From Flavobacteriales bacterium (GTDB lineage Bacteria > Bacteroidota > Bacteroidia > Flavobacteriales_F > PHOS-HE28): DNA of 64,000 nt. The translations under genes and the position numbers were made by a program. The stretch spans positions 42,576 to 106,575 of the forward strand of contig JAEUTA010000031.1 of NCBI GenBank assembly GCA_016788205.1, given 5' to 3'. The notes beneath the pieces were generated by a model that did no database searches, had not been told where the DNA came from, and saw only the letters and a list, made by a program, of their open reading frames with translations. Below, in pieces: positions 602 to 54,396 of this stretch (positions within the stretch are counted from its first letter, which is position 1; each line of letters starts with the position of its first letter).

Positions 602-3799
<3,198 letters not shown>

Positions 3800-3815
3800 G
3801 CGGCGCGCGGTGTTC

Positions 3816-5216
3816 TTAGTAGTGACACTTGGCGCATTCCCAGCCGCCAAGCTCCTTCACACTGATCTTCTCGTCCTCCAGGTACTTCTTCAATTCTTCG
3901 TGGCCCATGTCGGTATCCTCCAAGCGGGCCATGATCTCGTCGTAGTAGCCGTTGCCGGCCATCTTCACATCCTTGGTATTGTGGCAGTCGATGCACCAGC
4001 CCATGGTGAGGGGCGCCCACTGCTCGGCCACGTCCATCTTCTCGTCGATGGGACCATGGCACTCCTGGCACTCCAGCTTGCCCACGGAAACGTGCTGCTG
4101 GTGGTTGAAGTAGGCGTGGTCCGGCAGGTTGTGCACCTTCACCCACTTCACGGGTTCGGGCTTGCCGGTGTAGGCCTTGCCGTCCCAACCCACGGCCGCG
4201 TAGATCTTGGCGATCTCCTTGGTGCCTTCGGGTGTACGGCCTTCGTTCACCGCACTGTGGCAGTTCATGCACACGTTGGTGCTGGGGATGCCCGCGTGTT
4301 TGCTCTTCTCGGCGCTACTGTGGCAATACTGGCAGTTGATGGCCAGGTTGCCCTTGTCGGCCTTGCCCGCGTGCAGGGTGTGGTTGAAGAGGATGGGCTG
4401 TTCGGGCTTGTAATGTGGCACTTCATCACCACCGTACACACCGATCACGAAAGCGGCATCCCATAGTTTCAGGATGAGGAAAACCACGATGAACAAGCCG
4501 AGGATGCTGGCAGCCGCTTTATTGTGCCAGGCCCAGTTGCGCAGGCGCTGGCCGAAGCTCATGTCCGGCTCCGGCTCTTTGCCTTCCGCTTCGCGGACCG
4601 CGTTGTTGAGGCTGCGCTTGACGCCGCTGAGGCTGAGCCCTACAACGAGCAGCAATAGGGCGATGACAACGAGCCAGGGCCAGTTGGAAGTTTCGCCCCC
4701 TGGAGTGACCGTTGTGGGATCCGGCCCCTTGGGAACAGGGGGCACGTACGCATCCGCATACGCCAGCACCGCATCGATCTCCTCGTCCGTGAGGGTTTGC
4801 GCGGTCATCACGCTCTTGTTCCACTTCGCGAACAGTTCCGTGGCATACGGATTGCCGGTCTTCAAATAAGCCGAGCTGTTCTTCACCCAGGCATGGATAT
4901 CGCCCTTCCCTTCCCAGCGCGCTTTGGCGCCTTTCAGGGCGGGACCGGTCATGTCCTTATCGGGCTTGTGGCAGCTGGCACAGTTCCCTTTGAACAGCTT
5001 TTCTCCGTCCGGTTGCGCGAAGGCCACCGTGGCGAAGAGGAACAAGAAGACTGATAGGGAAATGTTAAAGAGCCCGGGGGAACGTTCTGAAATCCTTGCT
5101 ACAAGCGGCATTCCGAGCATTTTAGAAGGGACAACCATCCGTTTGTCCGGCCGCAAAAATAGCCAGCGGACCAATTGGGGGATAGCCGGTTGACGTGCTT
5201 GCCACAGCGATGTCAC
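3816..5216 (-). CDS. actA: Alternative complex III cytochrome c subunit ActA. Six CxxCH motifs: an N-terminal class-I-like cytochrome c domain, two TM helices, then a pentaheme domain.
   Basis: CxxCH motifs: CASCH, CQYCH, CMNCH, CQECH, CIDCH, CAKCH. Signal/anchor segment LSVFLFLFATVAFAQ and hydrophobic helices WLVVIALLLLVVGLSL and ILGLFIVVFLIL. Directly upstream of actB. Confidence 0.85.
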   Translation of the reverse strand: MTSLWQARQPAIPQLVRWLFLRPDKRMVVPSKMLGMPLVARISERSPGLFNISLSVFLFLFATVAFAQPDGEKLFKGNCASCHKPDKDMTGPALKGAKARWEGKGDIHAWVKNSSAYLKTGNPYATELFAKWNKSVMTAQTLTDEEIDAVLAYADAYVPPVPKGPDPTTVTPGGETSNWPWLVVIALLLLVVGLSLSGVKRSLNNAVREAEGKEPEPDMSFGQRLRNWAWHNKAAASILGLFIVVFLILKLWDAAFVIGVYGGDEVPHYKPEQPILFNHTLHAGKADKGNLAINCQYCHSSAEKSKHAGIPSTNVCMNCHSAVNEGRTPEGTKEIAKIYAAVGWDGKAYTGKPEPVKWVKVHNLPDHAYFNHQQHVSVGKLECQECHGPIDEKMDVAEQWAPLTMGWCIDCHNTKDVKMAGNGYYDEIMARLEDTDMGHEELKKYLEDEKISVKELGGWECAKCHY

Positions 5217-10885: not shown

Positions 10886-12553
10886 TCAACGCCCCCCCGG
10901 TACTCCGCCACCACGTGGCTTTTCCCCTGCAGGAGGAAGGGCCTTCTTCACCTGTCCATCTTCGTACTCGGTGGTCTTCACCGGCCTTCCGTCGCTGCCG
11001 AAAACGGTCATGGTGCCATGCAGCCTGCCGTTGCGGTAGGTCATCTCCTGGATCACACGGCCCCGCTGATCATACACTTTGCACGGGCCATCGGGATCAC
11101 CATCGAGCAAGGTCTGCTCGCGCATCTTTACACCGGCATCATCGAAATAGGTCCATGCCCCAGTGGGCGTTCCGTTGCTGTAACTGCCTTCTGCCACGGC
11201 GATACCACTGATGTTATAAGTGACCCAGCGGCCGCTCTTCTTGCCGTCCAGGTAGACACCCTCCTCCTTCACACGGCCCCCGATCTCCTTGCCAGGCGGG
11301 CTTTCGGTGTAGAGCTTCCATGCTCCGTTCTTCAGATCGTCCTTGTAGTAACCCTCGAAGTCGGGTTGTCCATCGGGGAAGAAGCCGCGCCACAGGCCGT
11401 TCATGCGTCCGGCATTGAACGAACCGATGGCTTTCTGTGCGCCGGTCTCGAACCAGCTGCGCCATTCACCCTCTTCCTTGCCGTTCGCATAAGGGCCTTC
11501 CTGGAGTTTCTGTCCGCCCTCGTACCAAGTCGTCCATATCCCGTCCTTAACGCCTTGTTCGAAGGTGCCTTTCTTCCAGAACTGCCCGCCTTCGTAGAAG
11601 TAGACCCACTCCCCCTCTTCCTTGTCGGCGGCAAAGGCGCCGGTGGTACTGAGCTGGCCGTTCGAATACCAGTATTTCCAAACACCCTCGCGTAGCCCTG
11701 CTTTGAAAGGCCCTTCCTGGTCCTTCTTGCCCAGGGTGGTGTACCAGGTCCACACGCTATCCTTCAGCCCCTCTTTGTGCCAGCCTTCCACATTGAGCTG
11801 GCCGCTCCTGAACCAGAGTTCGTAGTGCCCATCCAGTTTACCTCCAGTGAAGGCATCCTTCTTTTCCAGCTTGTTGTTGGAGTACCAATAGGACCACTGG
11901 CCGTGCTTTTCGCCCTGCCGGAAGGCGCCTTTCGCCTTGGGGTTGCCTGCCGGGTACAGCTCCATGCAAGGCCCGTCCTTCAGTCCATTACTGATGGTGA
12001 ATTCTTCCAATACGGACCCGCTCGCGTAGTAGCTGCGCATGATACCATTGCCCTCCACCACCGTGGGCTTCCCCTCCCGATCCCATGCATCGCGAACGAG
12101 GATCGTACTATCCGTGTAGGTCTCCACCAGCAAAGGCACGCTGTCCGGGTTGTAGTAACGCCACTCCCCGATCTTCTTACCGCCCTTGTAAAGACCACGC
12201 TCCATGATGTCCCCATCGCTGTAACGCGATACCCGCAGGCTATCCTCCTTGCCGTAACGGAACCAGCCGTCATGATGCACGTTGCCATTGAGATGGAAGA
12301 TGCGCACACGTCCATGGCGCTCGCCCATTCGGAACTCAGCCTGCTCCAGTAGTCGGCCCTCCCGATCGTAGAACTTCCATTCATTCCACTCCCGGCCGTT
12401 CACCATAAGGCCCTCACTGCGCTTGATGGTCTTCTTCGCGTCCCAATGGTCCAGGAAAGGCTGTGCCCCTTGCGCACGCACATCCTGCCCCATGGCTGCA
12501 AGGAAAGCGACCACCGATGTGGCCAGGGAAAATCGCTGAGCAGAAAGACGCAT
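10886..12553 (-). CDS. Secreted MORN-repeat protein (YwqK-family-like), with about 20 tandem W/Y-rich repeats.
   Basis: Signal peptide MRLSAQRFSLATSVVAFLAAMG. After it, the unit G.W..Y..NG.L...G.Y..G...G.W (23 residues) repeats throughout. Start taken at 12553, not the ORF-track start at 12703. Confidence 0.75.
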   Translation of the reverse strand: MRLSAQRFSLATSVVAFLAAMGQDVRAQGAQPFLDHWDAKKTIKRSEGLMVNGREWNEWKFYDREGRLLEQAEFRMGERHGRVRIFHLNGNVHHDGWFRYGKEDSLRVSRYSDGDIMERGLYKGGKKIGEWRYYNPDSVPLLVETYTDSTILVRDAWDREGKPTVVEGNGIMRSYYASGSVLEEFTISNGLKDGPCMELYPAGNPKAKGAFRQGEKHGQWSYWYSNNKLEKKDAFTGGKLDGHYELWFRSGQLNVEGWHKEGLKDSVWTWYTTLGKKDQEGPFKAGLREGVWKYWYSNGQLSTTGAFAADKEEGEWVYFYEGGQFWKKGTFEQGVKDGIWTTWYEGGQKLQEGPYANGKEEGEWRSWFETGAQKAIGSFNAGRMNGLWRGFFPDGQPDFEGYYKDDLKNGAWKLYTESPPGKEIGGRVKEEGVYLDGKKSGRWVTYNISGIAVAEGSYSNGTPTGAWTYFDDAGVKMREQTLLDGDPDGPCKVYDQRGRVIQEMTYRNGRLHGTMTVFGSDGRPVKTTEYEDGQVKKALPPAGEKPRGGGVPGGR

Positions 12554-12849
12554 GATGAACGGGGGCGAAAGTAGCGTGGCGGGAAAGGAGCTCGGGATGT
12601 GCGCTATCGCTTCATGAACAACGCGATGTTGCAGTTGAACGTGTGACCCGACCAAGCTTCCCCGTCCAAAGGCCCCATGGTAAGCTATCTGCGCGACCGA
12701 CAATTGGGCATCCTGCTGTTCATCGCCTTGATGGGATTGGCCCTACTCGCCTGGCCGGCCTGAAGGGATCTTCATCAGGCCCTGGTACGATCCGCTCGAC
12801 CGCACTTGCTGACACGCCGGGCAGCCGGTAACGCCCCTAACTTTCGACC

Positions 12850-14799
12850 ATGGTACGCAGAAGGAAGCCCCTTCTACTTCTCGGTGTGGTGCTCGTCGTG
12901 GTGCTGTCGGGAGCATGGACGGAGGCCAACCGACCCGTGCGCGGTCCTCACGGCAGACTAGCGCTTGCCCTTTTCCGCAGTGTGAGCGACACCTTACCGG
13001 TGCTGCGCAGCAACTACTTCTGGACGAGCGGCCGCTGTGCGGGGTGCCACGGACGTGACCTGCTGGGTGAGGCCAGCATCGACCCGGCCAACGGACGTGA
13101 TGTGAACGTGGTGAACGACTGGCGCAGCACCTTGATGGCGAACAGTGCGCGCGATCCTTTCTTCCGCGCGAAGCTGGACCATGAGGCGTTGGTGAACCCG
13201 GCACATAGCGAAGCGTTGAGCAACAAATGCCTGAGCTGCCATGCTCCGCTGGCCATGCACGAAGAACGTATGGCGGGCCGGCCGCCTTTCACCGCAGCCA
13301 TGTTGGACACCAGCGTGCTGGCCGGTGACGGCGTCAGCTGCCTGGCATGCCACATGCAAAGCCCCATTGATGCCGGTCACTTCTTCAGTGGCGACCTACA
13401 TTTCGACAGTGCCCATGTCTATGGGCCTTACGCAGATGACCAGATCGACCCGAACATCATGCAATCGTTCGTGGGATTCACACCCGGATTCGGCGATCAC
13501 ATGGTGAACAGCGAAGTATGTGCCGGTTGCCACACGCTGATCACGCAGACCGTGGACCTGCAAGGGAACACGACCGGTGATGAGTTCGTGGAACAAGCCA
13601 CCTACCATGAGTGGAAGAACAGTGTTTACAGCGCCAACGATGTACACTGCAACACCTGCCACATGCCGCGCGTGGAGGGGCCGGTGATCTTGGCAGCGGA
13701 GTATGCGTTCCTGCCTGGTCAAACACCGTTCGGACTGCACCACCTGGCCGGAGCGAACGTGCATATGCTGGAGATCATGAAGGCGAATCGTGAGGCTTTG
13801 CACATCCCTGCCACCGAAGAACAGTTCGACAGTACGATCGCGCGAACGAAGGCCATGTTGATGCAGCGTACAATGGATGTGGACCTCGATCCGATGGGAC
13901 GCACAGCGGACACCGCTTTCTTCGATGTGCGCCTGACCAACCGTGCAGGGCATCGCTTCCCGAGCGGATATCCTTCCCGTCGCGCCTTTGTGCGCCTTGT
14001 GGTGCGCAATGCGGACGGCGACACCGTTTTCGCCAGCGGTCTAGTTGATGATACGTTCGAAGTGCTCGGCCACGATACCCCATATGAGCCGCACCATGAT
14101 GTGATCCGCAGGGAGGAGGATGTGCAGATCTACGAGCTGGTGATGGGCGATGTGAACGGCGACCCGACCACCGTGCTGGAGCGCGCGAAAACCCCTTTGA
14201 AGGATGACCGTCTGGTACCCCTCGGCTTCACCACAACGCATGCGAGCTACGATACCATGCGTATAGCTGGCGTTGCGCTGAACGATATCGATTTCAATCA
14301 CGATGCGTTCGGGGCTGAAGGCAGCGGGACCGATGTTGTACACTACCATGTTCCCGTCAGCGGTGTAAATGGTGCTCTTCTGGCAACAGCACAGGTCTAC
14401 TACCAGCCTATACCACCCGCTTGGAATGCAGCGATGTTCGCCTTCAATTCCGCATACATCGATACGTTCCGCACCATGCTCGGCCAGAGCGATCATTCAC
14501 CCATCCTCGTGGCCGCCGACTCCATCGGCTTAGGACCGCTCGGTGTGGCGGCATCGTCGCTGGAGCGCATCACCGTATCCCCCAATCCGAGCCTTGACGG
14601 CACAGCGGAGATCCGTTTTGCGAGCCATGAACGGGTCGAACTCGTGACCGTCTACGATGCTCGAGGTGCGGTTCTGAGCATACCGACAGAGCGACGCAAC
14701 AATAGCCTGCGTCTGACACTACCGCCAGTAGCAGGCGTCTACTTGATACACCTGCTGGTGAACGGCAGCCCTGTGCTGAAGCGCATCGTTCGCCGATGA
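12850..14799 (+). CDS. Multiheme (pentaheme) c-type cytochrome with a T9SS C-terminal sorting domain.
   Basis: N-terminal signal/anchor (LLLLGVVLVVVLSGAWTEA). Five CxxCH motifs: CAGCH, CLSCH, CLACH, CAGCH, CNTCH. An HRFPSGYPSRR segment. The C-terminus has a Por/T9SS CTD signature (VSPNPS...VYDARGAVL...AGVYLIHLLVNGSPVLKRIV). Confidence 0.8.
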   Translation: MVRRRKPLLLLGVVLVVVLSGAWTEANRPVRGPHGRLALALFRSVSDTLPVLRSNYFWTSGRCAGCHGRDLLGEASIDPANGRDVNVVNDWRSTLMANSARDPFFRAKLDHEALVNPAHSEALSNKCLSCHAPLAMHEERMAGRPPFTAAMLDTSVLAGDGVSCLACHMQSPIDAGHFFSGDLHFDSAHVYGPYADDQIDPNIMQSFVGFTPGFGDHMVNSEVCAGCHTLITQTVDLQGNTTGDEFVEQATYHEWKNSVYSANDVHCNTCHMPRVEGPVILAAEYAFLPGQTPFGLHHLAGANVHMLEIMKANREALHIPATEEQFDSTIARTKAMLMQRTMDVDLDPMGRTADTAFFDVRLTNRAGHRFPSGYPSRRAFVRLVVRNADGDTVFASGLVDDTFEVLGHDTPYEPHHDVIRREEDVQIYELVMGDVNGDPTTVLERAKTPLKDDRLVPLGFTTTHASYDTMRIAGVALNDIDFNHDAFGAEGSGTDVVHYHVPVSGVNGALLATAQVYYQPIPPAWNAAMFAFNSAYIDTFRTMLGQSDHSPILVAADSIGLGPLGVAASSLERITVSPNPSLDGTAEIRFASHERVELVTVYDARGAVLSIPTERRNNSLRLTLPPVAGVYLIHLLVNGSPVLKRIVRR

Positions 14800-15614
14800 A
14801 CCTTCACCTGGCCTCCATCCATATCCACCCGGTGAAATCGCTCGGAGGCTTTCCTGTGGACCGCGCGCGCTTGACCGATCGCGGCCTTGAACACGACAGG
14901 CGTTGGATGCTCGTGGACGCCGAAGGACGCTTCATCTCGCAGCGCGAAATACCCGCGATGGCCTGTCTGCATTGTAAGCCAACGGCAAAAGGTTTCCAAG
15001 TGACGGACATCCGTGATGGCAGGCACCTGGACCTGCCCTGGGCATTGCAGAGCGGCTCCACCATGCCCGCTTCCGTTTGGGATGAACCCGTGGATGTGAT
15101 ACCTGCCCCGCCCGTGATGGCGAAGTGGTTCGCACAGCAACTGGGGGTGTCATGCACGCCCGTTTTCATGCCCGACGGCACGTTGCGACCTACGGACACG
15201 CGCTACGCCCAAGCCGTCACTTCGCTCAGCGATGGATTTCCCTACCTGATCCTCTCCCAGACCTCCCTGGACGACCTGAATAGCCGTCTTGGCGCTCATT
15301 CGCAGGTGTCCATGGACCGTTTCCGGCCCAATCTTGTCATCGCTGGGGGCACCGCGTTCCAGGAAGACGACTGGCGCCATATCCTGATCGGCGAGTATAT
15401 CTTCCACTTGGTGAAGCCCTGTGCGCGCTGCATAATCACTACTACCGACCAACGTACCGGTGCACGCGGCAAGGAGCCACTGGCCACACTATCACGCTAC
15501 CGCAGACGGGCGAGTGATGCCGCCAAGGTGGACTTCGGCATGAACGCGGTGGGGTCCATTGATGGCGTCTTGCGGGTGGGTGATGCGGTGAAGATGTACG
15601 AGGAGGGCTCTTAA
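14796..15614 (+). CDS. MOSC domain protein (YcbX/mARC-like molybdenum-cofactor sulfurase C-terminal domain, with an N-terminal beta-barrel).
   Basis: IHIHPVKSLGGFPV opens a MOSC_N beta-barrel; a C-terminal MOSC region follows (CARCIITTTDQRTG). Its start overlaps the cytochrome stop as ATGA. Confidence 0.8.
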   Translation: MNLHLASIHIHPVKSLGGFPVDRARLTDRGLEHDRRWMLVDAEGRFISQREIPAMACLHCKPTAKGFQVTDIRDGRHLDLPWALQSGSTMPASVWDEPVDVIPAPPVMAKWFAQQLGVSCTPVFMPDGTLRPTDTRYAQAVTSLSDGFPYLILSQTSLDDLNSRLGAHSQVSMDRFRPNLVIAGGTAFQEDDWRHILIGEYIFHLVKPCARCIITTTDQRTGARGKEPLATLSRYRRRASDAAKVDFGMNAVGSIDGVLRVGDAVKMYEEGS

Positions 15615-15623
15615 TTTGGCCCA

Positions 15624-16412
15624 ATGGTACACGCGCTGCTGGCCGACAAAGCCAACCGCCTGTTCGTGGTGCTCGCCGCCTTCTTCATCGCCAACGCGTT
15701 GATAGCCGAGATGATAGGCGTGAAGCTGTTCCAGTTGGAAAAGGCGCTCGGGTTGAACAAGGCGGACTTCCAACTGCTCGGACAGCAACACCTCTCCTTC
15801 GTACTCAGTGTGGGCGTGCTGCCATGGCCTCTGGTCTTCATCCTCACCGATGTGATCAACGACTACTACGGTGTTCGTGGCGTGCGCTTCCTCACCATGC
15901 TCACTGCAGTGATCATCGCGTTCGCATTCGTTGTGATGTACCTCGCCATCGGCATGCCGCCGGACATGGGTTGGTGGATCGGCAGCGGCGTGTCCTCCGG
16001 TGTTCCAGACATGCAAGCGGCCTTCGCGAACATCTTCGGGCAGAGCATGAACATCATCCTCGGCAGCATCACGGCCTTCATCGTCGGCCAGCTCGTTGAC
16101 GCCTTCATCTTCCGTCGCATCAAGCGCGTGACTGGCGACAAGAAGATCTGGCTGCGCGCCACGGGCAGCACGTTGGTGAGCCAGTTGATCGATAGTGTGG
16201 TGGTGACCTACCTCGCCTTCTGGGTACTGCGCGATATGTCGTTCCCCTTGGCGACGGCACTTGTTCTTACCGCGTACGCGTACAAGCTCACTGTTGCGCT
16301 GGTGGCTACACCACTTGTCTACCTCGCACACGCCGGTGTGGAGCGCTATCTTGGAAAGGAGAAAGCACACACCATGCGCACAGCCGCATTGCAGCGGGCT
16401 GATGAACAGTGA
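15624..16412 (+). CDS. yhhQ: Queuosine-precursor transporter, YhhQ/VUT family (DUF165).
   Basis: 262 aa polytopic membrane protein with the family's typical conserved segments (ILTDVINDYYG, FIVGQLVDAFIFRRIK). Confidence 0.8.
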   Translation: MVHALLADKANRLFVVLAAFFIANALIAEMIGVKLFQLEKALGLNKADFQLLGQQHLSFVLSVGVLPWPLVFILTDVINDYYGVRGVRFLTMLTAVIIAFAFVVMYLAIGMPPDMGWWIGSGVSSGVPDMQAAFANIFGQSMNIILGSITAFIVGQLVDAFIFRRIKRVTGDKKIWLRATGSTLVSQLIDSVVVTYLAFWVLRDMSFPLATALVLTAYAYKLTVALVATPLVYLAHAGVERYLGKEKAHTMRTAALQRADEQ

Positions 16413-16591
16413 TAGCCATGGCGAAGAAGAAAGCGATAACGAAAAAGGAACTGGACGCTATCGAACGTGCCGCCAAGCGCGAGGCGCAGAAAGCCGCAGG
16501 TGCGCTGGATGGTCGTTTCCGTCAGAAAGTGGTGCCCAACAAGAAGCGCAAGGCCGAAGGCAAGAAGAAGGTGAACCCCGACGCGGAATGA
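16409..16591 (+). CDS. Small lysine-rich basic protein (60 aa), hypothetical.
   Basis: MIAMAKKKAITKKELDAIERAAKREAQKAAG...KKRKAEGKKKVNPDAE. Its start overlaps the yhhQ stop as ATGA, and its stop overlaps the next ATG, so translational coupling supports it as real. Confidence 0.4.
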   Translation: MIAMAKKKAITKKELDAIERAAKREAQKAAGALDGRFRQKVVPNKKRKAEGKKKVNPDAE

Positions 16592-16620
16592 TGCGGCTAC
16601 CTTTGCAAGCGCACACCACC

Positions 16621-17040
16621 ATGTCCACCGAATTGCACGACCTCTACGTTGATGGCAAGAAGGCCAGCCCCGGCCTTCCCGACAGCGTGAAGAATTACCT
16701 GATCGACATCGACGGCACCATCTGCGAGGACATCCCCAACGAGGAACCGGAGCGCATGGTAGATGCCGTGATCTTCGACGGTGCACTCGAAACGTGCAAC
16801 CGTTGGTACGAGCAAGGGCACATCATCACGTTCTTCACGTCGCGTACGGAAGCGCATCGCGCGGTGACCGAAGCCTGGTTGAACAAGCACGGCTTCAAGT
16901 ACCACGGCATTCTCTTTGGCAAGCCGCGCGGTGGCAACTACCATTGGATCGACAATCACATCGTGCGCTCCACCCGTTACATGGGCACTTTCTCCGACAT
17001 GGTGGAGAAGCAGGTGACCATTCAGGTGTTCCCCGAGTGA
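16621..17040 (+). CDS. HAD-superfamily hydrolase-like small protein (DxDGT motif).
   Basis: LIDIDGTICEDIPNEE is a HAD motif I, followed by a ~140 aa core. An alternative start at 16588 (MMRLP...) is possible. Confidence 0.55.
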   Translation: MSTELHDLYVDGKKASPGLPDSVKNYLIDIDGTICEDIPNEEPERMVDAVIFDGALETCNRWYEQGHIITFFTSRTEAHRAVTEAWLNKHGFKYHGILFGKPRGGNYHWIDNHIVRSTRYMGTFSDMVEKQVTIQVFPE

Positions 17041-17041
17041 T

Positions 17042-18028
17042 CTAGCTTCCTGCTGGCGTCCACTTCTCGATCATCCCATCAACGGGCTTCACCGTCCGGA
17101 GGTAGGAGTAAATAGCGCCGAGATCCTCCTCGGTCATGCTTGCATACATCATCCATGGCATGGCGGTCTGCATATCGCCCCGTGCCCAATCCACGGGTGG
17201 TGCAACATAGCCGCTGTCCGCATACATCTTGAACCGCTGGATGAACTGCTCCTTCGTCCAACGCCCGATGCCACCATCTTCACTCGGAGTGATGTTGGGG
17301 GAGCGTAACAGGGAGCCGTTGGGGAAAACGAATTCGAACCCACCTGCGAACGGTTCGCCCACTTTTTCACCCTTTTCCATCTTCGTGTGGCATTCACCAC
17401 AACCGGCTGCATTGGTAAGGTAGGCGCCCAGCGCAAGTATATCCGAAGCTGCGGGGCGTTCGGTGGGTGCAGGCCTTGATGGAACCGTATGCAGGATAAC
17501 ACTAACAGGGAATACCGCCCGGCTCTCCGCCACTTGGTTCTCGATGGCCGGCACACTGCGCAGGTAAGCGATGATACTATACACATCCTCGGTGGCCAGC
17601 TTGTTGTAGTTCGGGTAGGGCATGACCGGGAAGAACGGATGACCATCCTTGCTGATGCCACTGGTCATGGCGCGGTACAATTCACCATCGCTCCACGAAC
17701 CCACGCCTGCCGGGGTGATGTTGCGCGAGAAGAAGGTACCGGGGAAGTTCATCGTCTCGTCGAACCGTTCGCCGCCTTTGCCCAAGGTTCCAGGGACCAT
17801 CGGTGCAGCGTAGGTGTTCCAATCGCGGGTGCTGTGGCAGTCCATGCAAACGCAAACACTGTTGGCCAGGTAGCGCCCGCGCTCTATCCGCTCAGGCGTG
17901 GGCTCCACCTTGAGATCGGCGGGCGCATCGATGTCGGGCAATGCGGTCGTGATGTAGGTGACCGCACCTACGCCGAGCAGTATGATCAACAGCAAAAGGA
18001 TGCCGAGCACCTTCAGGAACTTCTTCAT
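17042..18028 (-). CDS. Membrane-anchored diheme cytochrome c.
   Basis: N-terminal anchor MKKFLKVLGILLLLIILLGVGAV. Two CxxCH motifs (CMDCHS, CGECHT), each followed by Met-containing class-I-like domains. Immediately downstream of the YdeP-family gene. Confidence 0.8.
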   Translation of the reverse strand: MKKFLKVLGILLLLIILLGVGAVTYITTALPDIDAPADLKVEPTPERIERGRYLANSVCVCMDCHSTRDWNTYAAPMVPGTLGKGGERFDETMNFPGTFFSRNITPAGVGSWSDGELYRAMTSGISKDGHPFFPVMPYPNYNKLATEDVYSIIAYLRSVPAIENQVAESRAVFPVSVILHTVPSRPAPTERPAASDILALGAYLTNAAGCGECHTKMEKGEKVGEPFAGGFEFVFPNGSLLRSPNITPSEDGGIGRWTKEQFIQRFKMYADSGYVAPPVDWARGDMQTAMPWMMYASMTEEDLGAIYSYLRTVKPVDGMIEKWTPAGS

Positions 18029-18109
18029 GGGAGAGGATGAAGTGGTCACGTTAATGACCGTGTAGTGATGTTGCGCAGGGAAGGTAGGACTCCTCGGCGA
18101 CAAGCCACT

Positions 18110-20428
18110 TCAGCGCCTACGGATGGAGATCACCACGCTCTTGCTCGCCGGCGTTCCGCTCTTCTCGGCTTTCAAATGCAAGGGGACCAACACATTGGCC
18201 TCGGGGAAGTATGTGGCCACACAGCCTTTCGCGATAGCATATGGTAATACGAAAAAGTCGGTCGCAACGCGCTCGCGCTCGTAATTGCTCACCAGGTCAA
18301 CACGCTCGCGTTCGGCAAGGCCCATGGCGCTCATATCATCAGCGTGCATCAGCACGACGCGCCGTTCGCCGTGGATGCCACGGTAGTGATCATCCAATCC
18401 ATATATCGTGGTGTTGAACTGATCGTGCGTACGGATGGTCATCATCATGAATCTGTCCTTGGGGACATTCCAAGCAGGCGCGGCATCCACGCTGAAACTG
18501 GCCTTCCCTGTACCCGTGGTGAACCGCGCTCCATCGCGCGCGTCGTTAGGGAGCACGAAACCGTCAGGTGTCCGCACACGCTTGTTGAAGTCCTTGAAAC
18601 CCGGGATCACCGCTTCGATCTCCTCGCGGATGCGGTCGTGGTCACGTGCCCACTCCTTCCAACGCAACGATGGATGTTCCTTCAATGTAGCATCCGCAAG
18701 GCCGCAAACGATCCAGGGCTCGCTGCGCAAGTACGGTGATGCGGGCTCGTGCGCGCCTTGCGAACGATGGACAACGCTCATGCTGTCCTCCACCGTGACG
18801 AACTGCGGCTTCGCGCCAGTGGGCGCAACACCGTCCAGCGTGTATGGCATGTCGCGTTCGCTACGGCCCAGACACGGCAGGATCAGCGCCTCCTCACCCG
18901 TGATCACGTGACTGCGGTTGAGCTTGGTGCTGATCTGTACGGTGAGCGCACAGGTCATCATGGCCTTCGCGGTGACCTCGCTATCGGGTGTGGCGCTGAT
19001 GAAATTACCTCCCAGGGCGATGAAGACCTTGGCGCGTCCCGCATGCATCGCTTCGATACAATCCACCACATCGTAGCCGTGCGAGCGTGGCGCGGTGAAT
19101 TGATATCGACCGTCCAGCGCTTGAAGGAAAGTCTCTGTGGGCTTTTCGTAGATGCCCATGGTACGATCGCCCTGGACGTTGCTATGCCCACGTACGGGGC
19201 ATGCACCAGCACCCGGCTTGCCAAAGGCCCCACGCAACAACAACAGGTTGACCACCTGCCGGATGTTCGCCACGGCGTTCACGTGCTGCGTAAGACCCAT
19301 AGCCCAGGTGATGATGATCCTATCCGTGCCACAGATCAGATCAGCGAGCTCATGGAACTGCTGCAACGTGATGCCGCAGGTATCGGCCATCTCCTGCACA
19401 TCGATATTGCGTAGCTCGGCGATGAACGCTTCATGACCTTCGGTGCGATCGGCGATGAACGCGCGGTCGAACACGGTGCCTGGACGGGCTTCCTCCCGCT
19501 CCAGCAAGAGTCGCATGACCCCTTTCAACAGGGCCACATCGGTGTTGATCCTGAGCCCGATGTGCAGGCTGCTGAGCGCCGAACCGCCGCGCAACACCGC
19601 CAGCGGACTCTGCGGATCAACGAACCGTTGCGTGCCGGCTTCAGGCAATGGGTTCACGCTCACCACGCGACCGCCGTTCTCCACGCACTTCGTCAAAGCG
19701 CTCAGCATCCGAGGGTGGTTGGTACCCGGGTTCTGCCCCATGACGATGATCAGACCGGCGTTATGCAGATCATCCAGCGACACCGTGCCTTTGCCTACGC
19801 CGATAGTCTCATTGAGCCCGACACCACTGCTCTCGTGGCACATGTTGCTGCAATCGGGCAGGTTGTTGGTGCCGAACCGCCGAACGAAAAGCTGGTAGAG
19901 GTAGGCCGCTTCGTTGCTTGCGCGCCCGCTCGTGTAGAAGACCGCTTCGTTCGGCGAGGACAAGGCGCTCAGGTGCTGTGCAGCATAGGCGAGCGCTTCG
20001 CTCCATCCCATGGGTTCATAGTGCGAACTTCCTGCGCGCAGTATGAAGGGCTCGGTCAAACGCCCTGCCTTGCCCAGCTCATAGTCGCTCCAGTGGCTGA
20101 GTTCCTCCACACTGTGCTTCGCGAAAAAGGCGCGGTCCACACGCTTGGTGGTACCCTCTTCTGCGATGGCCTTCACCCCGTTCTCGCAATATTCGCCCAA
20201 GCGGCTCCGGTGGGCGGGATCGGGCCAGGCGCAACCCGGACAGTCGAAGCCATCCTTCTGGTTCAGCTTGTTCAGTATGCTGATGCCGTTGAGCACCCCG
20301 GTCTCCTCCTGCACATGAGCCAACGAACGCACCAACGCAGGCAGCCCTGCCGCGCGTTCCTGCTTGGGCACCAGCGCAAGACCCGTGTGCCTGTCGGGAG
20401 GAAGTAATCGGATGGAACGACGGTTCAT
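18110..20428 (-). CDS. FdhF/YdeP-family molybdopterin (bis-MGD) oxidoreductase.
   Basis: 772 aa. N-terminal Cys cluster (CPGCAWPD...C), MopB domain motifs, and end-to-end similarity to the YdeP/formate-dehydrogenase-like family (LPDCSNMCHESSGVGL). Confidence 0.85.
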   Translation of the reverse strand: MNRRSIRLLPPDRHTGLALVPKQERAAGLPALVRSLAHVQEETGVLNGISILNKLNQKDGFDCPGCAWPDPAHRSRLGEYCENGVKAIAEEGTTKRVDRAFFAKHSVEELSHWSDYELGKAGRLTEPFILRAGSSHYEPMGWSEALAYAAQHLSALSSPNEAVFYTSGRASNEAAYLYQLFVRRFGTNNLPDCSNMCHESSGVGLNETIGVGKGTVSLDDLHNAGLIIVMGQNPGTNHPRMLSALTKCVENGGRVVSVNPLPEAGTQRFVDPQSPLAVLRGGSALSSLHIGLRINTDVALLKGVMRLLLEREEARPGTVFDRAFIADRTEGHEAFIAELRNIDVQEMADTCGITLQQFHELADLICGTDRIIITWAMGLTQHVNAVANIRQVVNLLLLRGAFGKPGAGACPVRGHSNVQGDRTMGIYEKPTETFLQALDGRYQFTAPRSHGYDVVDCIEAMHAGRAKVFIALGGNFISATPDSEVTAKAMMTCALTVQISTKLNRSHVITGEEALILPCLGRSERDMPYTLDGVAPTGAKPQFVTVEDSMSVVHRSQGAHEPASPYLRSEPWIVCGLADATLKEHPSLRWKEWARDHDRIREEIEAVIPGFKDFNKRVRTPDGFVLPNDARDGARFTTGTGKASFSVDAAPAWNVPKDRFMMMTIRTHDQFNTTIYGLDDHYRGIHGERRVVLMHADDMSAMGLAERERVDLVSNYERERVATDFFVLPYAIAKGCVATYFPEANVLVPLHLKAEKSGTPASKSVVISIRRR

Positions 20429-29969: not shown

Positions 29970-31172
29970 TCAACGCAGTATCGGCGTTCCGCTCTGCGGC
30001 AGGTAGTGTACTTCCACAAGGTCCCCTGCCTTGCACGCGCGCTGGCTGGTCGGCAGGTAGGCCAACGCATCCGCTTCCACCAAGGTGCGCAACATGTGGG
30101 AACCTTCATCCGCCAGCAGCTCAACGCGACCACTGCTCACGCGCGCGGCTCGGAACTCTGCACGATCTCCTTTCACCGTGAGCGCTGTGCCGATGGGAAG
30201 TCGTTCACTTCGCATGTACGGATCGGCGCGATGGCGCATGGCTAACAGGAAGGGCAGCACGTATTCGTAGAACAGCACCAGTGCCGCACGTGGATTACCG
30301 GGCAGGCCAAAGATGTGCCTTCCGTTCAACGTAGCGAAGAACATCGGCTTCCCCGGTTTCTGCGCCACCCCATGGAAATGCACGGTGGCTTTCAGCTTCT
30401 TCAGCACGGGCAGCAACAGGTCATGATCGCCGACCGATGCACCGCCCGTGGTGATCACCACATCCGTCTTTCCCGCAGCCGCAAGCAATGCTTCGCTCAG
30501 CTCTTCTTCCTCGTCGAATACAAGATGAACATCGTCGGTGGCATCAATGCCCGTAGCGTTCAGTGCGGCCAGCAACATCTTCTCGTTGCTGCTGTGGATG
30601 GAGCCCTCGTGCGTCTCCCCTTCCTCCAGGAATTCCCCGCCCGTGCGAATGATGCTGACCGTTGGGTCCTGTGCCACCATCACCTCATACACGCCGCACG
30701 ATGCCAGCAGCCCGATGGCGGCCGGTGAAAGCACCGACCCCTTCGCCAGCAACCGATCGCCAGGCTTTACGCTCTCTCCTTTCCGGCGGATGTTGGCTCC
30801 GTTGTTGAACGCACCTTTTGCGTGCTCGATCCGCTCCCCGTCGCGTGTGCAATGCTCTTGCATGAGGACCGCAACCGTATCCTTCGGTACCTGCGCACCG
30901 GTATTGATGCGCACAGCTTCTCCAGCACGCAGCGCTTCCGTAGCGACCTGGCCCGCCATCAATTCACCCACTATCGTCCACGGACCATCTACGCTTCCTA
31001 CCGCATAACCATCCACCGCGCTCACATCGGAACGCGGATAAAACTCACCGGAGAACAGATCCTCCATCAGGTTGCGGCCGATGGCTTCTTCCGGAGGGAA
31101 GAACATGCCTTCTCGCACAGCGATGCCCACCTCAGCCATGATGATCCCACGTGCTTCTTCCACCGAGATCAT
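29970..31172 (-). CDS. moeA: Molybdopterin molybdotransferase MoeA.
   Basis: About 400 aa with MoeA N-terminal, MoCF-binding and C-terminal domains (SAVDGYAV..., GGASVGDHD). The ORF track's 545 aa extension was rejected; the ATG at 31172 overlaps the TSUP stop as ATGA. Confidence 0.9.
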   Translation of the reverse strand: MISVEEARGIIMAEVGIAVREGMFFPPEEAIGRNLMEDLFSGEFYPRSDVSAVDGYAVGSVDGPWTIVGELMAGQVATEALRAGEAVRINTGAQVPKDTVAVLMQEHCTRDGERIEHAKGAFNNGANIRRKGESVKPGDRLLAKGSVLSPAAIGLLASCGVYEVMVAQDPTVSIIRTGGEFLEEGETHEGSIHSSNEKMLLAALNATGIDATDDVHLVFDEEEELSEALLAAAGKTDVVITTGGASVGDHDLLLPVLKKLKATVHFHGVAQKPGKPMFFATLNGRHIFGLPGNPRAALVLFYEYVLPFLLAMRHRADPYMRSERLPIGTALTVKGDRAEFRAARVSSGRVELLADEGSHMLRTLVEADALAYLPTSQRACKAGDLVEVHYLPQSGTPILR

Positions 31173-31912
31173 GCGAAGAACAGTTTGAACGACGCGAACA
31201 ACAAGACCAGACCCAGCACCTGACGCAAGCGTTCCTGGCTGAACCGTTGTGCGCCGATGTAGGCCCCAAATGCACCCCCGGCCAAGGCCGCCGCGATCCA
31301 GATCAGGTGCGCGCTGCTGAAGATGCCGCTGCCTGGAGCGAAGAGCGTGGTGGACATGCTTGCCAAACCGGCCAGGCTGTTCACGAAGATGAACCCTGCA
31401 CTGATCGCGGCGCTTTCCTTCGCGGTGCTCCAGCCGAAGACGAGCAGAAGCGGGCTCAGCAGGATGCCACCACCTATGCCGATCATACCCGAGAACAGGC
31501 CGAGCACCGCACCGATGGCCAACGCCAGGGGCAATGCCGGCGATCGCTTCTGCTCGTTGCTCGCACCGAACAGACCCAGCAAACGCGCCACGGCGATGAG
31601 CAGGCACACGGCGAGCACACGTTTATAGACCACCGCATCCAGTTGCATGCGCGCACCCAGCCACGCGAAGGGCACCGAAGCCGCAGCGAACGGCCAGAAC
31701 AGGTTCCAGCGGAAATGTCCGGCACGGGCGAATTGCGCGAAGGCCATCGCGCTCACGAAGAGGTTCAACGCAAGAGCGGTCGGCCGCACCACCTCGGGCG
31801 CGAAGCCCAGCAACAACATCACCGCGATGTAGCCGCTCGCGCCACCGTGGCCCACGCTCGCATAGAGAAAGGCGACCAGGGCCAATAGCAAAGCGATGGT
31901 GATCTCGTTCAT
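31169..31912 (-). CDS. TSUP-family (TauE/SafE-type) anion exporter, embedded in the Moco operon.
   Basis: 247 aa polytopic membrane protein with the two-repeat TSUP architecture. It is translationally coupled on both sides (ATGA overlaps with moeB and moeA). Confidence 0.75.
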   Translation of the reverse strand: MNEITIALLLALVAFLYASVGHGGASGYIAVMLLLGFAPEVVRPTALALNLFVSAMAFAQFARAGHFRWNLFWPFAAASVPFAWLGARMQLDAVVYKRVLAVCLLIAVARLLGLFGASNEQKRSPALPLALAIGAVLGLFSGMIGIGGGILLSPLLLVFGWSTAKESAAISAGFIFVNSLAGLASMSTTLFAPGSGIFSSAHLIWIAAALAGGAFGAYIGAQRFSQERLRQVLGLVLLFASFKLFFA

Positions 31913-32607: not shown

Positions 32608-32628
32608 AGGCGCAAGGTACGCCCAGCC

Positions 32629-37917: not shown

Positions 37918-39042
37918 GTGCGCCATCCCGTGAAGAAAGTTCTCGCCCTCGTCCTGCTCTTGTTCGCCATTCTGGTCTCCTGTACCAAGGAGAACCTGCA
38001 AGAGAGCCTCGTCGTGTTCGAGGATCAAGGCGATCGTTTGGAACTGGATCCTCAACAATTCCCCTTCAACGCCCTCTCCAGTTACCACTTCTTCAAGGGC
38101 CACATGGCGCTGCAGAAACCCGTTCTGGGCGTTCTGCCCTATGCACCCATCAACGCACTGTTCAGTGACTACGCGCACAAGTTCCGCTTCGTGTGGATGC
38201 CTGCTGGTACGCACGCCACCTACAATGGCGACAACGAGGTGCTGGACTTCCCGGACGGTACGGTGCTGATCAAGACCTTCTATTACGACCGGGTGCAGCC
38301 CGCAGATGTGCGCCGCCTCGTGGAGACCCGCCTGCTTTTCAAACGCAACGGCGCATGGGAATTCGCCAACTACGTGTGGAATGCCCAACAGACCGAGGCT
38401 ACGCTGGATCTGAACGGGAGCTACACCCCCATAACTTGGGTGGAAGAGGGCGGTGCCACGCGCACGGTGAATTACCGCATTCCGTCCCAGGCCGAGTGCT
38501 TCACGTGCCACAAATTCGATGGCGTTTCCACACCCATCGGTCCCAAACCGCAGAACCTCAACAGTCTTTTCAGCTACGGCGACAAAACCGGTTTCGCGAA
38601 CACAGCGAACAAGAACCAACTCGCCCACTGGGTTCAGCAGGGCTACCTACAGCCGGGTTTCCCCAAGCGGATCGCCACTGTGCCACGTTGGGAAGATGTC
38701 GCCCTGCCGCTGACCGATCGCGTACGCGGCTACGTGGACATCAATTGCGCCCACTGCCATCGCGAGGGAAGCCACTGCGACTACCGGCCCATGCGCTTCG
38801 CCTACAGTGAAACCGCCGACCCAGAGAACCTGGGGGTCTGCGTGCCACCGGACGACCCTCTGTTGCCGCAGCACACGTTCATCGTCGCTCGCGGCAATAC
38901 CGCACGCTCTCTGTTGCACTATCGCGTAGCCGCCACCGATGAGGCCGAACGCATGCCGCTCCTGGGGCGCACCCTCGTGCATGATGAGGGCCTCGCCCTG
39001 ATCACCGAGTGGATCAATAGTCTTTCTCCCGCCTGCCCGTAA
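37918..39042 (+). CDS. Diheme c-type cytochrome lipoprotein. Its C-terminal domain resembles the planctomycete-type cytochrome c (PSCyt1-like) pattern.
   Basis: Lipobox LVSC. Two CxxCH motifs (CFTCHK, CAHCHR). The second is followed ~65 aa later by RSLLHYRVAATDEAERMPL, resembling the PSCyt1 '...SlL..ri....deeeRMPP' tail. Confidence 0.65.
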   Translation: MRHPVKKVLALVLLLFAILVSCTKENLQESLVVFEDQGDRLELDPQQFPFNALSSYHFFKGHMALQKPVLGVLPYAPINALFSDYAHKFRFVWMPAGTHATYNGDNEVLDFPDGTVLIKTFYYDRVQPADVRRLVETRLLFKRNGAWEFANYVWNAQQTEATLDLNGSYTPITWVEEGGATRTVNYRIPSQAECFTCHKFDGVSTPIGPKPQNLNSLFSYGDKTGFANTANKNQLAHWVQQGYLQPGFPKRIATVPRWEDVALPLTDRVRGYVDINCAHCHREGSHCDYRPMRFAYSETADPENLGVCVPPDDPLLPQHTFIVARGNTARSLLHYRVAATDEAERMPLLGRTLVHDEGLALITEWINSLSPACP

Positions 39043-50945: not shown

Positions 50946-50986
50946 GAACGCAATGAACCCCGACCAGCAGCCGGGGTTCATTGCGT
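50946..50986. terminator. Strong hairpin between convergent genes, a putative bidirectional terminator.
   Basis: A perfect 16 bp inverted repeat, AACGCAATGAACCCCG / CGGGGTTCATTGCGTT, with a 9-nt loop. It lies between the TolC stop (50929) and the tricorn stop (51002). There is no obvious U-tract. Confidence 0.5.
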
Positions 50987-51001
50987 TCAAATGAGTGCGT
51001 T

Positions 51002-54000
51002 CTACCTCATCAGCACCTTCACCGCCTCTTCCAGTTGCTGGTCGCGGCCCTGGCTCACGGCGCCGGGGTCAAGCGCTTGTTTCACATCGGGCTCCAGTTG
51101 CTGGTTCTCCAGGTACTGGCCGTTGTTGTCGATCATGCCCACCTGCGGTATGCCGAACCACATGTTGTTCTGCAGACCTTCCCACCACACGGCGGTACCG
51201 GTGCCCGCAACAGGCATGCCCACGAGCTTACCGATGCCCATGGCGCGGTAGGTCACCGGGAACATGTGCGCATCGCTGTAGTTGCCTTCGCTCATCACCA
51301 CCACGCTCGGCTTCTGCCACTTGAACTGCGGCTCGGTGCCCAGCTTCTGGCCGCGTGGCTCCATGCGCATATAGGTCTTGCCGTTGAGGAAAGTGGCCAG
51401 GTCATCGTGCAACCAGCCGCCGCCGTTGAAGCGCGTATCCACCACCAAGCCCTTCTTGTTGTGGTAGCGGCCCAGTGCTTCTTCGTACACCACACGGAAG
51501 CTCTGATCGTCCATGCCCTGCACGTGTACGTAGCCGAGTTGTCCGCCGCTGAGGCTGTCCACCAGGTGACGGCTATTCTCCACCCACCGCTTGTAGAGCA
51601 TGTCGCCTTGTTCCCACCAGGTGATCGGCTTCACCGTTTCCACCCAGCGTGTGTTCGTCTTGGTATCGAGAATGCCGAGCAACATGGGTTTGCCGGCCTT
51701 GCGGTTGAAGTAGCGTGCGGGATCCACATTGGCTTCGATCACCTGCCCATCGACCTGTTCGATGACATGACCGGCTTTGATCTTCGACCCCTTCTTGATC
51801 ACGGGGCTCTTCTCCAGGATCTCGGCGATCTTCAAGCCCGGACCGGCATCGTTGGTGTAGAGCAGGCCGAGGCAAGCTGTCTCGTCGCCATTCGGGACTT
51901 CATCGCCACCATAACCCGCACCGGTGTGGCTTGCGTTGAGTTCACCAAGCAGCTCGCTGCACAGTTCGGCCATGTCGTGGTTGTTGTTGATGTGCGGCAG
52001 GTAGCGCTGGTATTCGGCCTTGTACTTGTCCCAGTCCACACCCTGGATGTCCACGCGGTAGAACTTCTTCTTCACCTGGCGCCAGATGTGCTCGTAGAGG
52101 TAGGCGCGTTCGGCCCCTTCATTCAGCAGCATGTCGCCGTTGATGCCCACGCCCTTGTTCTCGTTCTTCTCGGTGTCGTAGTAGCTGATGCTGCCGTTGG
52201 AGATGTAGAAGAGCTTCTTGCCCTCCTTGTCCAGCATGAGGCCACCGGCCCAGCCGTCACCCATCTTGTTGAGGATCTTGGTCTCGCGCGTGCGCACCTC
52301 GTACTGCCACAGATCGGTGCCTTTCTCGAAAGCGGCGAAGTACCACACCTTCTCGCCGTCCTTGCTCAACACAGCACCGCTGAGGAAGCTGGAATTCGGC
52401 GTCAGGCGCAGGCGACGTTCCTGCAGGCCTTCCAATTCGATGGTGATGGGTTTCACCGGCTTGTCCTTCTCCTCGTCCTCCTTCTTCTTTTTGTCCTCCT
52501 TCTCTTTCTTCTTCTTCTCCTCTTCGGTCAGTTCCTCGTCGTCACCATCCTTCTTGTCCTCATCCTCTTTCGCCAGAGCGGCTTCCTCCTTGTTCAGTTT
52601 GAACTTGTCGTAGGCTTCCTGCGTGAGGAAGAAGGCATAGGCATCGCCTTGACCGCCCCAGCTCGCGTGGTTCTTCATGCCGTCGCGATCGCTCGTGTAC
52701 ACGATGGCCTTGCCGTCCATGGCCCAGCGTGGGCCGTAGCCACCGTAGCCGCTACGGGTAAGGTCAACGATGGGTTCCGTGCCGGTGGCCTTTACGATAC
52801 CCACCTGGCCGATCCATTGCTGCTCGTGCAGGAAATTCACTACGAACCACTTGCTATCCGGGCTCCACTCATACCACTGGTCTCCATCGGAGTAGCTGTA
52901 ATTCTTGTCGGCGGCCATTACCGTGCGCGTCTGTTTGCTCGCCAGGTTGAGCACTTTCAACGTGGTGCGCTCCTCCAAATACGCCACCTCCTTTCCATCG
53001 GGGGAATAGAACGGCTGGAACTCTTCCGCCGGTGTGTTCAGCAATGCTTCCTCCTTCAGCACCGTACCATTGAAGAAGTACTTCTCTTCCTTGCGTGTGA
53101 GGCTTGTGGTGTAAAGGTCCCAGCTGCCGTTGCGCTCGGTGGCGTAGAGGATGCTGCGGCCATCGGGACTGAAGCTGACGTTGCGCTCCTGTTCGGGCGT
53201 GTTGGTGATGCGGCGTGTGGTGCCTTCGGCCACGGAGGACACGAACACTTCGCCACGATGGACGAAGACCACTTCCTTGCCGTTGCTGCTCACCTCGTAC
53301 TCGCTGGCGTTGTTCACGCTGATGATCTTCTCCGGATTGTAGCGCCCATCGTTGTTGATGCGGATGGCCACCTTCTTCGGTTCAGCACCGTCGGTCATGG
53401 TGTAGAGCTCACCGCGGTAACTGAAACAGAGGGTGCCATTGTCGCTCATGCTCAGGTAACGCACCGGGTGATCGGTCAAGCGGCTCACCTGCGTGCTGGC
53501 ACCGCCCGTCGCGGGCATCTTGTACACGTTGAAGGAGCCGTTCTGCTCGCTGAGGTAGTAGAGGGTGTTGCCATCCTTGCTCCACACCGGGCTGCGGTCC
53601 TCTCCGGCGAAGGTGCTGAGCTGCTTGTAGGCCTTGGTCGCTGTATCGTAGGTCCAGATGTCGCGGGTTACGCTGCTGGTGTGGTGCTTGCGCAGCGGGT
53701 CTTCGTAACCCTTGCGGTCTTGGAAGGCGAGGATGGTGCCTTCGGGGTTGTAGCGTGCGTTCTGCATGGCGATGGTGCTCAGCTGCATGGGGCGGCCACC
53801 TTTCGCGGGCACTGTATAGAGTTCACCGAAACCACCCACGGGGAACTGCTGGTGCTTCACGTCATCCTGGCGTGTGCCGTAGAAGATCACGTTCGCATCA
53901 TCGCGTGTGAAGTCCGTGGGGATCTCGCCATTGCTGTGGAAGGTGAGGCGCGTGGGTGCACCGCCCATGGCACCCATCACGAACACGTCGGCCCCACCGT

Positions 54001-54244: not shown

Positions 54245-54396
54245 CATGTGGTTCTTCATGGTCGGGCAAAACTATTCGTCCCCGGCGCGTGCCCATCCCG
54301 GGACGAGCGGTTGACCTATTCCAGCCGACCCAATGGGAAAAGACGGCGTCCACGAGCGCCCTTGGACGGGCATATGCGGGTAGTCATCACCAGTGA

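Follow-up and report, generated by a model that had tools for sequence, protein, structure and literature searches.

A type IX-tagged pentaheme cytochrome of the PHC fold family and its junction with a MOSC-domain gene in a Flavobacteriales clade

Introduction

The name PHC has been proposed for a family of cytochromes from cable bacteria and Geobacter, with ExtKL as sPHC and GSU2801 as lPHC; these proteins combine a pentaheme domain with an immunoglobulin (Ig)-like domain, are described as periplasmic and are in some cases fused to truncated haemoglobins, and none is described with a C-terminal sorting domain (CTD) of the type IX secretion system (T9SS) (PMC11976967). In this family, MccSep (ExtKL, GSU2937-2936) of Geobacter sulfurreducens is a periplasmic polysulfide reductase whose activity requires the selenocysteine Sec325 and a heme 2 ligated by Cys239 (PMC13510729), and for c552, which a purple sulfur bacterium produces, a part in sulfur metabolism has been suspected (PMC11976967). 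Here we analyse a gene for a related pentaheme cytochrome, together with the MOSC-domain gene that overlaps its end, in a 64-kb stretch of DNA from a Flavobacteriales bacterium (contig JAEUTA010000031.1, positions 42,576 to 106,575), hereafter called the window.

The known outer-surface multiheme cytochromes of Shewanella and Geobacter use type II secretion and porin-cytochrome conduits; MtrC and OmcA of Shewanella are exported by the type II route and wired to such a conduit. Extracellular multiheme cytochromes have been reported in bulk for Bacteroidota in a survey of wastewater metagenome-assembled genomes (MAGs) (PMC11495043), and our search of the literature accessible to it returned no paper naming the T9SS together with multiheme cytochromes.

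A first-pass annotation of the locus had described a T9SS-exported cytochrome with five CxxCH motifs whose gene overlaps that of a MOSC protein, and had proposed the two as a previously undescribed module. The five motifs, the sorting domain and the overlap are all present in the sequence. The fold family is already known from two crystal structures, and there is nothing unusual about the MOSC and YhhQ genes; the novelty lies in a large-type pentaheme cytochrome that lacks the selenocysteine and the cysteine of MccSep, is fused to a T9SS sorting domain and is widespread in the Fibrobacteres-Chlorobi-Bacteroidetes (FCB) group.

Domain architecture and fold of the cytochrome

All ten cysteines of the cytochrome sit inside its five CxxCH motifs, which begin at residues 63, 127, 164, 224 and 267. 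Given how many Cys and His residues the protein contains, only about 0.007 such motifs would be expected by chance, and all five are invariant in the three homologue alignments, including that of 68 diverse sequences. The N-terminus, MVRRRKPLLLLGVVLVVVLSGAWTEA, holds the sole hydrophobic segment of the protein (15-mer Kyte-Doolittle value 2.93, residues 8-22); by hydropathy, its charged n-region and single hydrophobic core are those expected of a Sec-type signal peptide, and the region is kept among homologues. Downstream of the hemes lies an Ig-like domain, larger than that of c552 and MccSep, with an insertion that bears the invariant H415 and the motif LKDNRLxPxGF.

An exhaustive search matched the cytochrome to representatives of 2711 clusters (50% identity), with 546 of the matches below 1e-30. 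Because these matches cover residues ~50-560, the ~510-residue core constitutes a large and well-conserved family. A profile built from 68 diverse members matches c552 of Thermochromatium tepidum (PDB 5ze8, E 1.9e-12) and MccSep (PDB 9wt8, E 1.4e-9), and on this basis the cytochrome is a T9SS-tagged member of the PHC fold family (ExtKL/MccSep, GSU2801, c552). In line with this assignment, the order of the five CxxCH motifs in the helical N-terminal domain agrees with that of c552 and MccSep in the alignment, and the overall fold, including the C-terminal Ig-like beta-sandwich, fits the c552/PHC family. The usable structure model was built from a 142-sequence alignment and supersedes an earlier one from 47 close homologues, which had a predicted local distance difference test (pLDDT) score of 58.8 and an unusable heme domain. 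Among family hidden Markov models, only weak generic multiheme matches were obtained, and the ExtKL selenoprotein model matches locally, over the GHRFPSGYP segment.

With respect to its relatives, the cytochrome has the larger core that the published description of a 'large PHC' evokes, a likeness to GSU2801 that is one of description only (PMC11976967). The c552 protein is smaller (385 residues in the crystal) and periplasmic, and carries neither a T9SS CTD nor the large Ig-like insertion. In addition, a giant protein, P0240 (1919 residues, annotated as subtilisin-like proprotein convertase/cytochrome c553), contains the pentaheme core at residues 1128-1620 plus two extra CxxCH motifs.

Comparison with MccSep and other multiheme proteins

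MccSep shares with the cytochrome five CxxCH motifs and an Ig-like stem, and its active-site loop GHSIPDGUP is homologous to the GHRFPSGYP segment. The chemistry of the loop differs, however: Tyr374 aligns with the selenocysteine of MccSep, and no residue of the GxP loop is selenocysteine or cysteine. Across the 68 diverse homologues this column reads Y34/F19/I11/H4, never C or U, and c552 has Ala there. Likewise, the distal cysteine ligand of heme 2 (C239 in MccSep) has no counterpart, as no cysteine exists outside the CxxCH motifs. MccSep is moreover a periplasmic tetramer, whereas the cytochrome bears a T9SS CTD that predicts, from its sequence, a location beyond the periplasm. With both catalytic residues missing, we reject membership of the MccSep family, and the MccSep mechanism is excluded because the selenocysteine and the heme-ligating cysteine are both absent.

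Several residues stand out as candidate axial ligands. H297, H368, H415 and M204 are each found in 67-68 of the 68 diverse homologues, M96 in 64 and H217 in 60. Additionally, D102, Q249, E254, R377, R378, K451 and R454 are invariant even at ~30% identity; since so many polar residues stay fixed at that distance, an enzyme acting on an anionic substrate seems more likely than a simple electron carrier.

There is no clean match to NrfA or ONR, and a search of the protein for the NrfA-type heme motif CxxCK found none; the protein nevertheless falls in a structurally characterised and mostly periplasmic fold. Judged by family model, CxxCK heme and Tyr cross-link, membership of the NrfA/ONR/HAO enzymes was rejected, with weak local hits at most (NrfH, 20.5 bits where the cutoff is 134; NrfA structures in the PDB, E 1e-4 or worse). 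For NrfA, ONR, OmcA/MtrC and NapC/NirT every score lies far under cutoff, and assignment to OmcA/MtrC or NapC/NirT was rejected as well. MtrC and OmcA are likewise multiheme c-type cytochromes that reside outside the outer membrane, and they give weak local Pfam and NCBIfam matches to the cytochrome; their fold is nonetheless unrelated, with no significant structural match, and no porin-cytochrome conduit of their kind was seen at the cytochrome locus.

Strength and spread of the sorting domain

The last 72 residues of the cytochrome pass the T9SS type-A model TIGR04183 with 29.6 bits against a curated cutoff of 23, and PF18962 is on record for many homologues. In the structure model the CTD is predicted at pLDDT >90 as a beta-sandwich of the kind seen in cargo bound to the SprA translocon, and it superposes on translocon-bound CTDs, in agreement with the first-pass annotation. 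At least three other CTD proteins are encoded in the window, which lends indirect support to a T9SS-dependent secretion of the cytochrome.

The CTD is present in 119 of the 120 closest homologues, all of ~645 residues, and in 116 of 117 diverse homologues (34-52% identity) from Calditrichae, Bacteroidales, Lewinellaceae and Flavobacteriales. At the level of the whole family it was found in 40 of 121 full-length representatives; of the 81 that lack it, 33 have lipoprotein-like signals, and Burkholderiaceae, Rubrivivax and Deferrisomatales are among their named sources. Given these counts, the tag is a widespread localisation variant of the pentaheme family, common across the FCB group rather than special to this locus.

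The cytochrome-MOSC junction and its neighbourhood

Gene neighbourhoods were compared in the closest 80 loci, taken from one genome per species; all are from Flavobacteriales-type MAGs, except one labelled Saprospiraceae. Fifty-two of them (L001-L052) hold orthologues at 53-76% identity, with a divergent MORN-repeat gene upstream, MOSC directly downstream and then usually yhhQ. The remainder (L053-L080) hold paralogues at 45-51% identity, often in the same genomes, that have no MORN, MOSC or yhhQ neighbours and have DnaB and DUF genes to one side, with genes for an M28 peptidase with CTD and a T9SS-tagged cupredoxin to the other. Examples of the latter arrangement, in which the paralogue sits beside a T9SS-tagged cupredoxin (Copper-bind plus Por_Secre_tail) and a CTD-bearing M28 peptidase, are found at L054 (13200-13856, minus strand) and L072 (9890-13938), and at L072 the T9SS pentaheme paralogue is tandemly duplicated.

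The ATGA overlap reported by the first-pass annotation is present in the window and recurs widely. For 48 of the orthologous loci the sequence extends far enough downstream to be compared. The two genes overlap by 4 nt in 27 and by 1 nt in seven, and are separated by 1-9 nt in five, so that in 39/48 they overlap or lie no more than 9 nt apart; of the rest, two have gaps of 121-389 nt, two have the genes 2.9-3.8 kb apart and five lack the MOSC gene. The conservation of the pair as neighbours thus stands within one clade and ends there, since neither the paralogue in the same genomes (48-51% identical) nor any of nine distant homologues looked up singly (five of them ~630-650 residues long, like the T9SS-tagged forms) has a MOSC neighbour, and the nine have no common context. 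One distant homologue without CTD (P0228, at L088, 3605-7761) is encoded in overlap with the 3' part of a TauE sulfite-exporter gene and lies after a metallo-beta-lactamase-rhodanese (persulfide dioxygenase-like) gene, a sulfur-metabolism context.

The slot after MOSC is variable. It is occupied by a VIT1/MbfA-type exporter gene in six loci and by a CaCA exchanger gene in five; at a seventh VIT1 locus, L025, the exporter gene replaces MOSC directly after the cytochrome gene, and at L038 the cytochrome gene is followed by one for a TonB-dependent-like outer-membrane protein. The VIT1 variant is a rubrerythrin-VIT1 (MbfA-like) iron exporter and the CaCA variant belongs to Na_Ca_ex; inserted transporters lie, for instance, at L024 12723-13880, L025 11968-13092 and L002 12769-13707. 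An IF-2/NusA/RimP block is near the cytochrome gene in only about half of the loci.

Taken as a whole, the cytochrome-MOSC pair forms a genuine operon junction that is conserved within one family-level Flavobacteriales clade and confined to it; the pair is dispensable for some members, and the operon also holds unrelated membrane transporters. Of the findings that the first-pass annotation had named as speaking against its reading (loss of the neighbourhood in related genomes, a C-terminal domain that is not of the T9SS, clean placement in NrfA/ONR with CxxCK), none was obtained in full.

Transcription unit, MOSC protein and molybdenum cofactor genes

A sigma-70 promoter scan is uninformative in a Bacteroidota genome, and the Bacteroidota -7-type motif was used instead. 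Almost all of the 52 orthologous loci have the pattern TA[AC]CTT[TG]CG ~5-15 nt ahead of the cytochrome start codon. In the window, between 12000 and 18200 on the plus strand, it is found only at 12838 and at 16598, after yhhQ, where the site falls just inside a HAD-like open reading frame (ORF; 16591-17040). The looser form TA(A/C)CTT(T/G)(C/G) lies 12-14 nt before four start codons, at 12838 and 44643 on the plus strand and at 32619 and 22455 on the minus strand. Such sites in the window suggest near-leaderless transcripts from -7-type promoters. The motif and terminator scan found no promoter-like motif or terminator between MOSC and yhhQ, and an Rfam scan of the whole window together with a permissive scan of the operon returned nothing, hence no riboswitch for the molybdenum cofactor (Moco). 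Since the motif is confined to 12838 and the position after yhhQ, with no internal terminator or riboswitch, the cytochrome, MOSC and yhhQ genes look like one near-leaderless transcript.

The MOSC protein scores 73.1 and 80.3 bits on the Pfam models MOSC_N and MOSC and matches human mARC1 with E 1.9e-28; its Mo-ligand cysteine aligns (VKPCARCIITTTD against VMACSRCILTTVD in mARC1), which bears out the mARC/YcbX-type assignment of the first pass. It differs from E. coli YcbX, which has a C-terminal 2Fe-2S ferredoxin domain, in consisting of the two MOSC domains only, and from mARC in having no membrane anchor. Hydropathy revealed neither a signal peptide nor a hydrophobic membrane segment, so the topological difficulty of pairing it with an exported cytochrome, already noticed in the first pass, is genuine. 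A search for MOSC homologues gave matches from the one clade only (57-69% identity) and is silent on MOSC orthologues elsewhere.

The next gene is the queuosine-precursor transporter that had been predicted, YhhQ, with 117.9 bits on the equivalog TIGR00697 against a cutoff of 50.95. The full Moco pathway claimed for the window is there for the most part, with genes for FdhD, MoaC/MoaB, MoaE, MoaD, MobA, MoeA and a MoeB-like ThiF protein; MoaA was not found among the Moco genes of the window. A TauE/SafE-family membrane protein is encoded inside this cluster, between the MoeB-like and MoeA genes (31169-31912, minus strand), and the start of the long MoeA ORF call (29970-31607) is probably too far upstream. 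At 17042-20428 (minus strand), a YdeP/FdhF-family molybdoenzyme gene (TIGR01701, 892 bits) is followed immediately downstream by one for a diheme cytochrome c with a membrane anchor. Many related loci also have the diheme gene, a few kb beyond the downstream end of the pentaheme cytochrome gene. The features of the locus are collected in Table 1.

Table 1. Coordinates of the features at the cytochrome-MOSC locus (positions in the window)
Feature	Position	Strand	Remarks
Divergent MORN-repeat protein gene (context)	10886-12703	-	Found upstream in the majority of orthologous loci
Bacteroidota -7-type promoter-like element TAACTTTC	12838-12845	+	12 nt before cytochrome ATG
Pentaheme c-type cytochrome, c552/MccSep (PHC) fold, T9SS type-A CTD	12850-14799	+	649 residues
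Predicted Sec-type signal peptide	12850-12927	+	RRRK, hydrophobic core, probable cleavage after TEA
Heme domain, five CxxCH	13036-13662	+	13036-13050, 13228-13242, 13339-13353, 13519-13533, 13648-13662
Ig-like beta-sandwich domain with large insertion	13867-14544	+	From model secondary structure, conservation and alignment to c552/MccSep stem domains
GHRFPSGYPSRR loop, homologous to MccSep GHSIPDGUP	13948-13983	+	Aligned with 9wt8 and 5ze8 by HMMER
T9SS type-A C-terminal sorting domain	14569-14796	+	
ATGA stop/start overlap cytochrome/MOSC (cgATGAac)	14796-14799	+	
MOSC_N + MOSC protein, mARC/YcbX type, without ferredoxin domain	14796-15614	+	272 residues, cytoplasmic
YhhQ/Vut_1 queuosine-precursor transporter	15624-16412	+	Probable third gene of the transcription unit

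Discussion

Our findings allow us to favour, with moderate confidence and as the most likely reading of the cytochrome-MOSC pair, co-transcription without mechanical coupling. The preference rests on the clade restriction of the pair, the existence of a paralogue without MOSC and the variable presence of VIT1, CaCA and YhhQ genes in the same slot, and for these reasons the proposed module is probably no module. Direct electron transfer between the two proteins is not possible, because the MOSC protein is cytoplasmic and the cytochrome is exported.

In the model that we propose, the cytochrome would be exported by the Sec pathway and receive its hemes in the periplasm, and the folded holo-protein would then cross the type IX translocon by means of its type-A CTD to reach the cell surface or the medium. 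There it would most likely serve as a redox enzyme or electron-transfer protein for an extracellular, probably anionic, substrate, with its five hemes arranged as in c552 and MccSep and the Ig-domain loop GH(R/K)FPSG(Y/F)PSRR covering the heme-2 pocket. MOSC and yhhQ would be co-transcribed with the cytochrome gene from the promoter directly upstream of it, and MOSC would be translationally coupled to it; its product would work independently in the cytoplasm, where it would reduce N-hydroxylated compounds in a Moco-dependent reaction. The coupling would then represent a gene order that became fixed in a single clade of Flavobacteriales and no two-component machine.

Some observations weigh against this model. 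The cytochrome-MOSC junction is the best-kept one in a neighbourhood that otherwise rearranges, which suggests selection for co-expression, and a shared physiological trigger or function could explain such selection. With regard to an enzymatic role, the candidate ligands H217, H297, H368, H415, M96 and M204 would suffice for five six-coordinate hemes. Nor do the genes nearby reveal a path by which electrons would reach a cytochrome at the surface.

A functional link between the two proteins could take the form of a defence against N-oxides, in which the surface cytochrome converts hydroxylamine, nitrite or NO in the manner of NrfA/HAO-type enzymes and the MOSC protein repairs N-hydroxylated bases, co-expression being the answer to one stress, e.g., beside nitrifiers in activated sludge. 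The tight translational coupling in 39 of 48 species-level genomes, the mARC/YcbX-like nature of the MOSC protein with its catalytic Cys and the origin of many related MAGs in wastewater plants are consistent with this idea, as is the frequent promiscuity of multiheme enzymes with such a heme core toward nitrite, hydroxylamine and sulfite (PMC13510729). We consider it unlikely, however: the nine homologues checked outside the clade have no MOSC neighbour, the paralogue of the same genomes does without MOSC, similarity to NrfA, HAO or ONR does not extend past the heme motifs, and an open-coordination heme is only putative. We would likewise attach little probability to its widest form, in which the T9SS is the FCB superphylum's own route for surface multiheme cytochromes, the pentaheme family and the T9SS-tagged cupredoxins make up an unrecognised extracellular redox system, and this clade deliberately co-expresses a Moco reductase against reactive N-O (or similar) compounds, one acting outside and the other inside.

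An iron-linked unit, responding to iron-replete conditions or peroxide stress, would have the cytochrome oxidise Fe(II), reduce Fe(III) or act as an iron or heme sink. Pointing this way are the seven loci with a VIT1/MbfA-type exporter, including L025 with its replacement of MOSC, the TonB-dependent-like protein gene of L038, the cupredoxin beside the paralogue, and the invariant Met204 and near-invariant Met96, which could give high-potential His/Met hemes. This explanation is doubtful too, as most loci, and this window among them, have no VIT1 gene, the slot that it shares with CaCA and YhhQ looks promiscuous, neither a Fur-type nor any other regulatory site was identified, and the His/Met ligands are only candidates.

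The homology to MccSep, active-site loop included, could also be taken to indicate a surface reductase of polysulfide or other sulfur compounds. In this respect, conserved Arg and Lys residues occur where MccSep binds anions, one distant homologue overlaps a TauE gene and comes after a persulfide dioxygenase-rhodanese gene, and c552 has its suspected sulfur role (PMC11976967). Such a function is improbable, given that Sec325 and Cys239 are both essential in MccSep, that the former is Tyr here and Y/F/I/H in the family and the latter ligand is absent, and that an aerobic lifestyle seems likely for the host lineage, given the alternative complex III-like operon of the window. Finally, that the CTD is vestigial and the protein an ordinary periplasmic electron carrier, as the periplasmic c552 and MccSep and the lack of an outer-membrane conduit encoded nearby might indicate, is very improbable in view of the above-cutoff score, the confident model that superposes on translocon-bound CTDs and the retention of the domain in all but one of the close and all but one of the diverse homologues.

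Whatever the role of MOSC, the T9SS-tagged pentaheme family comprises hundreds of sequence clusters in Bacteroidota and Calditrichota, including abundant Flavobacteriales of wastewater and freshwater. If its members are secreted as holo-cytochromes, the T9SS would be able to move heme-loaded, folded redox proteins, and largely aerobic heterotrophs would carry out unrecognised extracellular redox chemistry; the T9SS route of a multiheme holo-cytochrome is thus a testable and interesting point. The family also shows what the MccSep/c552 scaffold does without the selenocysteine and the cysteine. By comparison, the coupling to MOSC matters less, as a handle for co-expression studies and probably not as a mechanism.

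Other observations in the window

Three further regions of the window are worth recording. At 602-5216 (minus strand), a gene for a 1082-residue molybdopterin-like/4Fe-4S protein adjoins one for a 466-residue cytochrome with six CxxCH motifs, a pair that resembles ActB/ActA from an operon for alternative complex III. An ORF of 1154 residues with no Pfam family (50981-54445, plus strand) lies downstream of an RND efflux operon (HlyD, AcrB, OEP). Additionally, a 374-residue ORF at 37918-39042 (plus strand), with two CxxCH motifs and no Pfam match, is flanked by CTD-bearing FG-GAP/ASPIC proteins.

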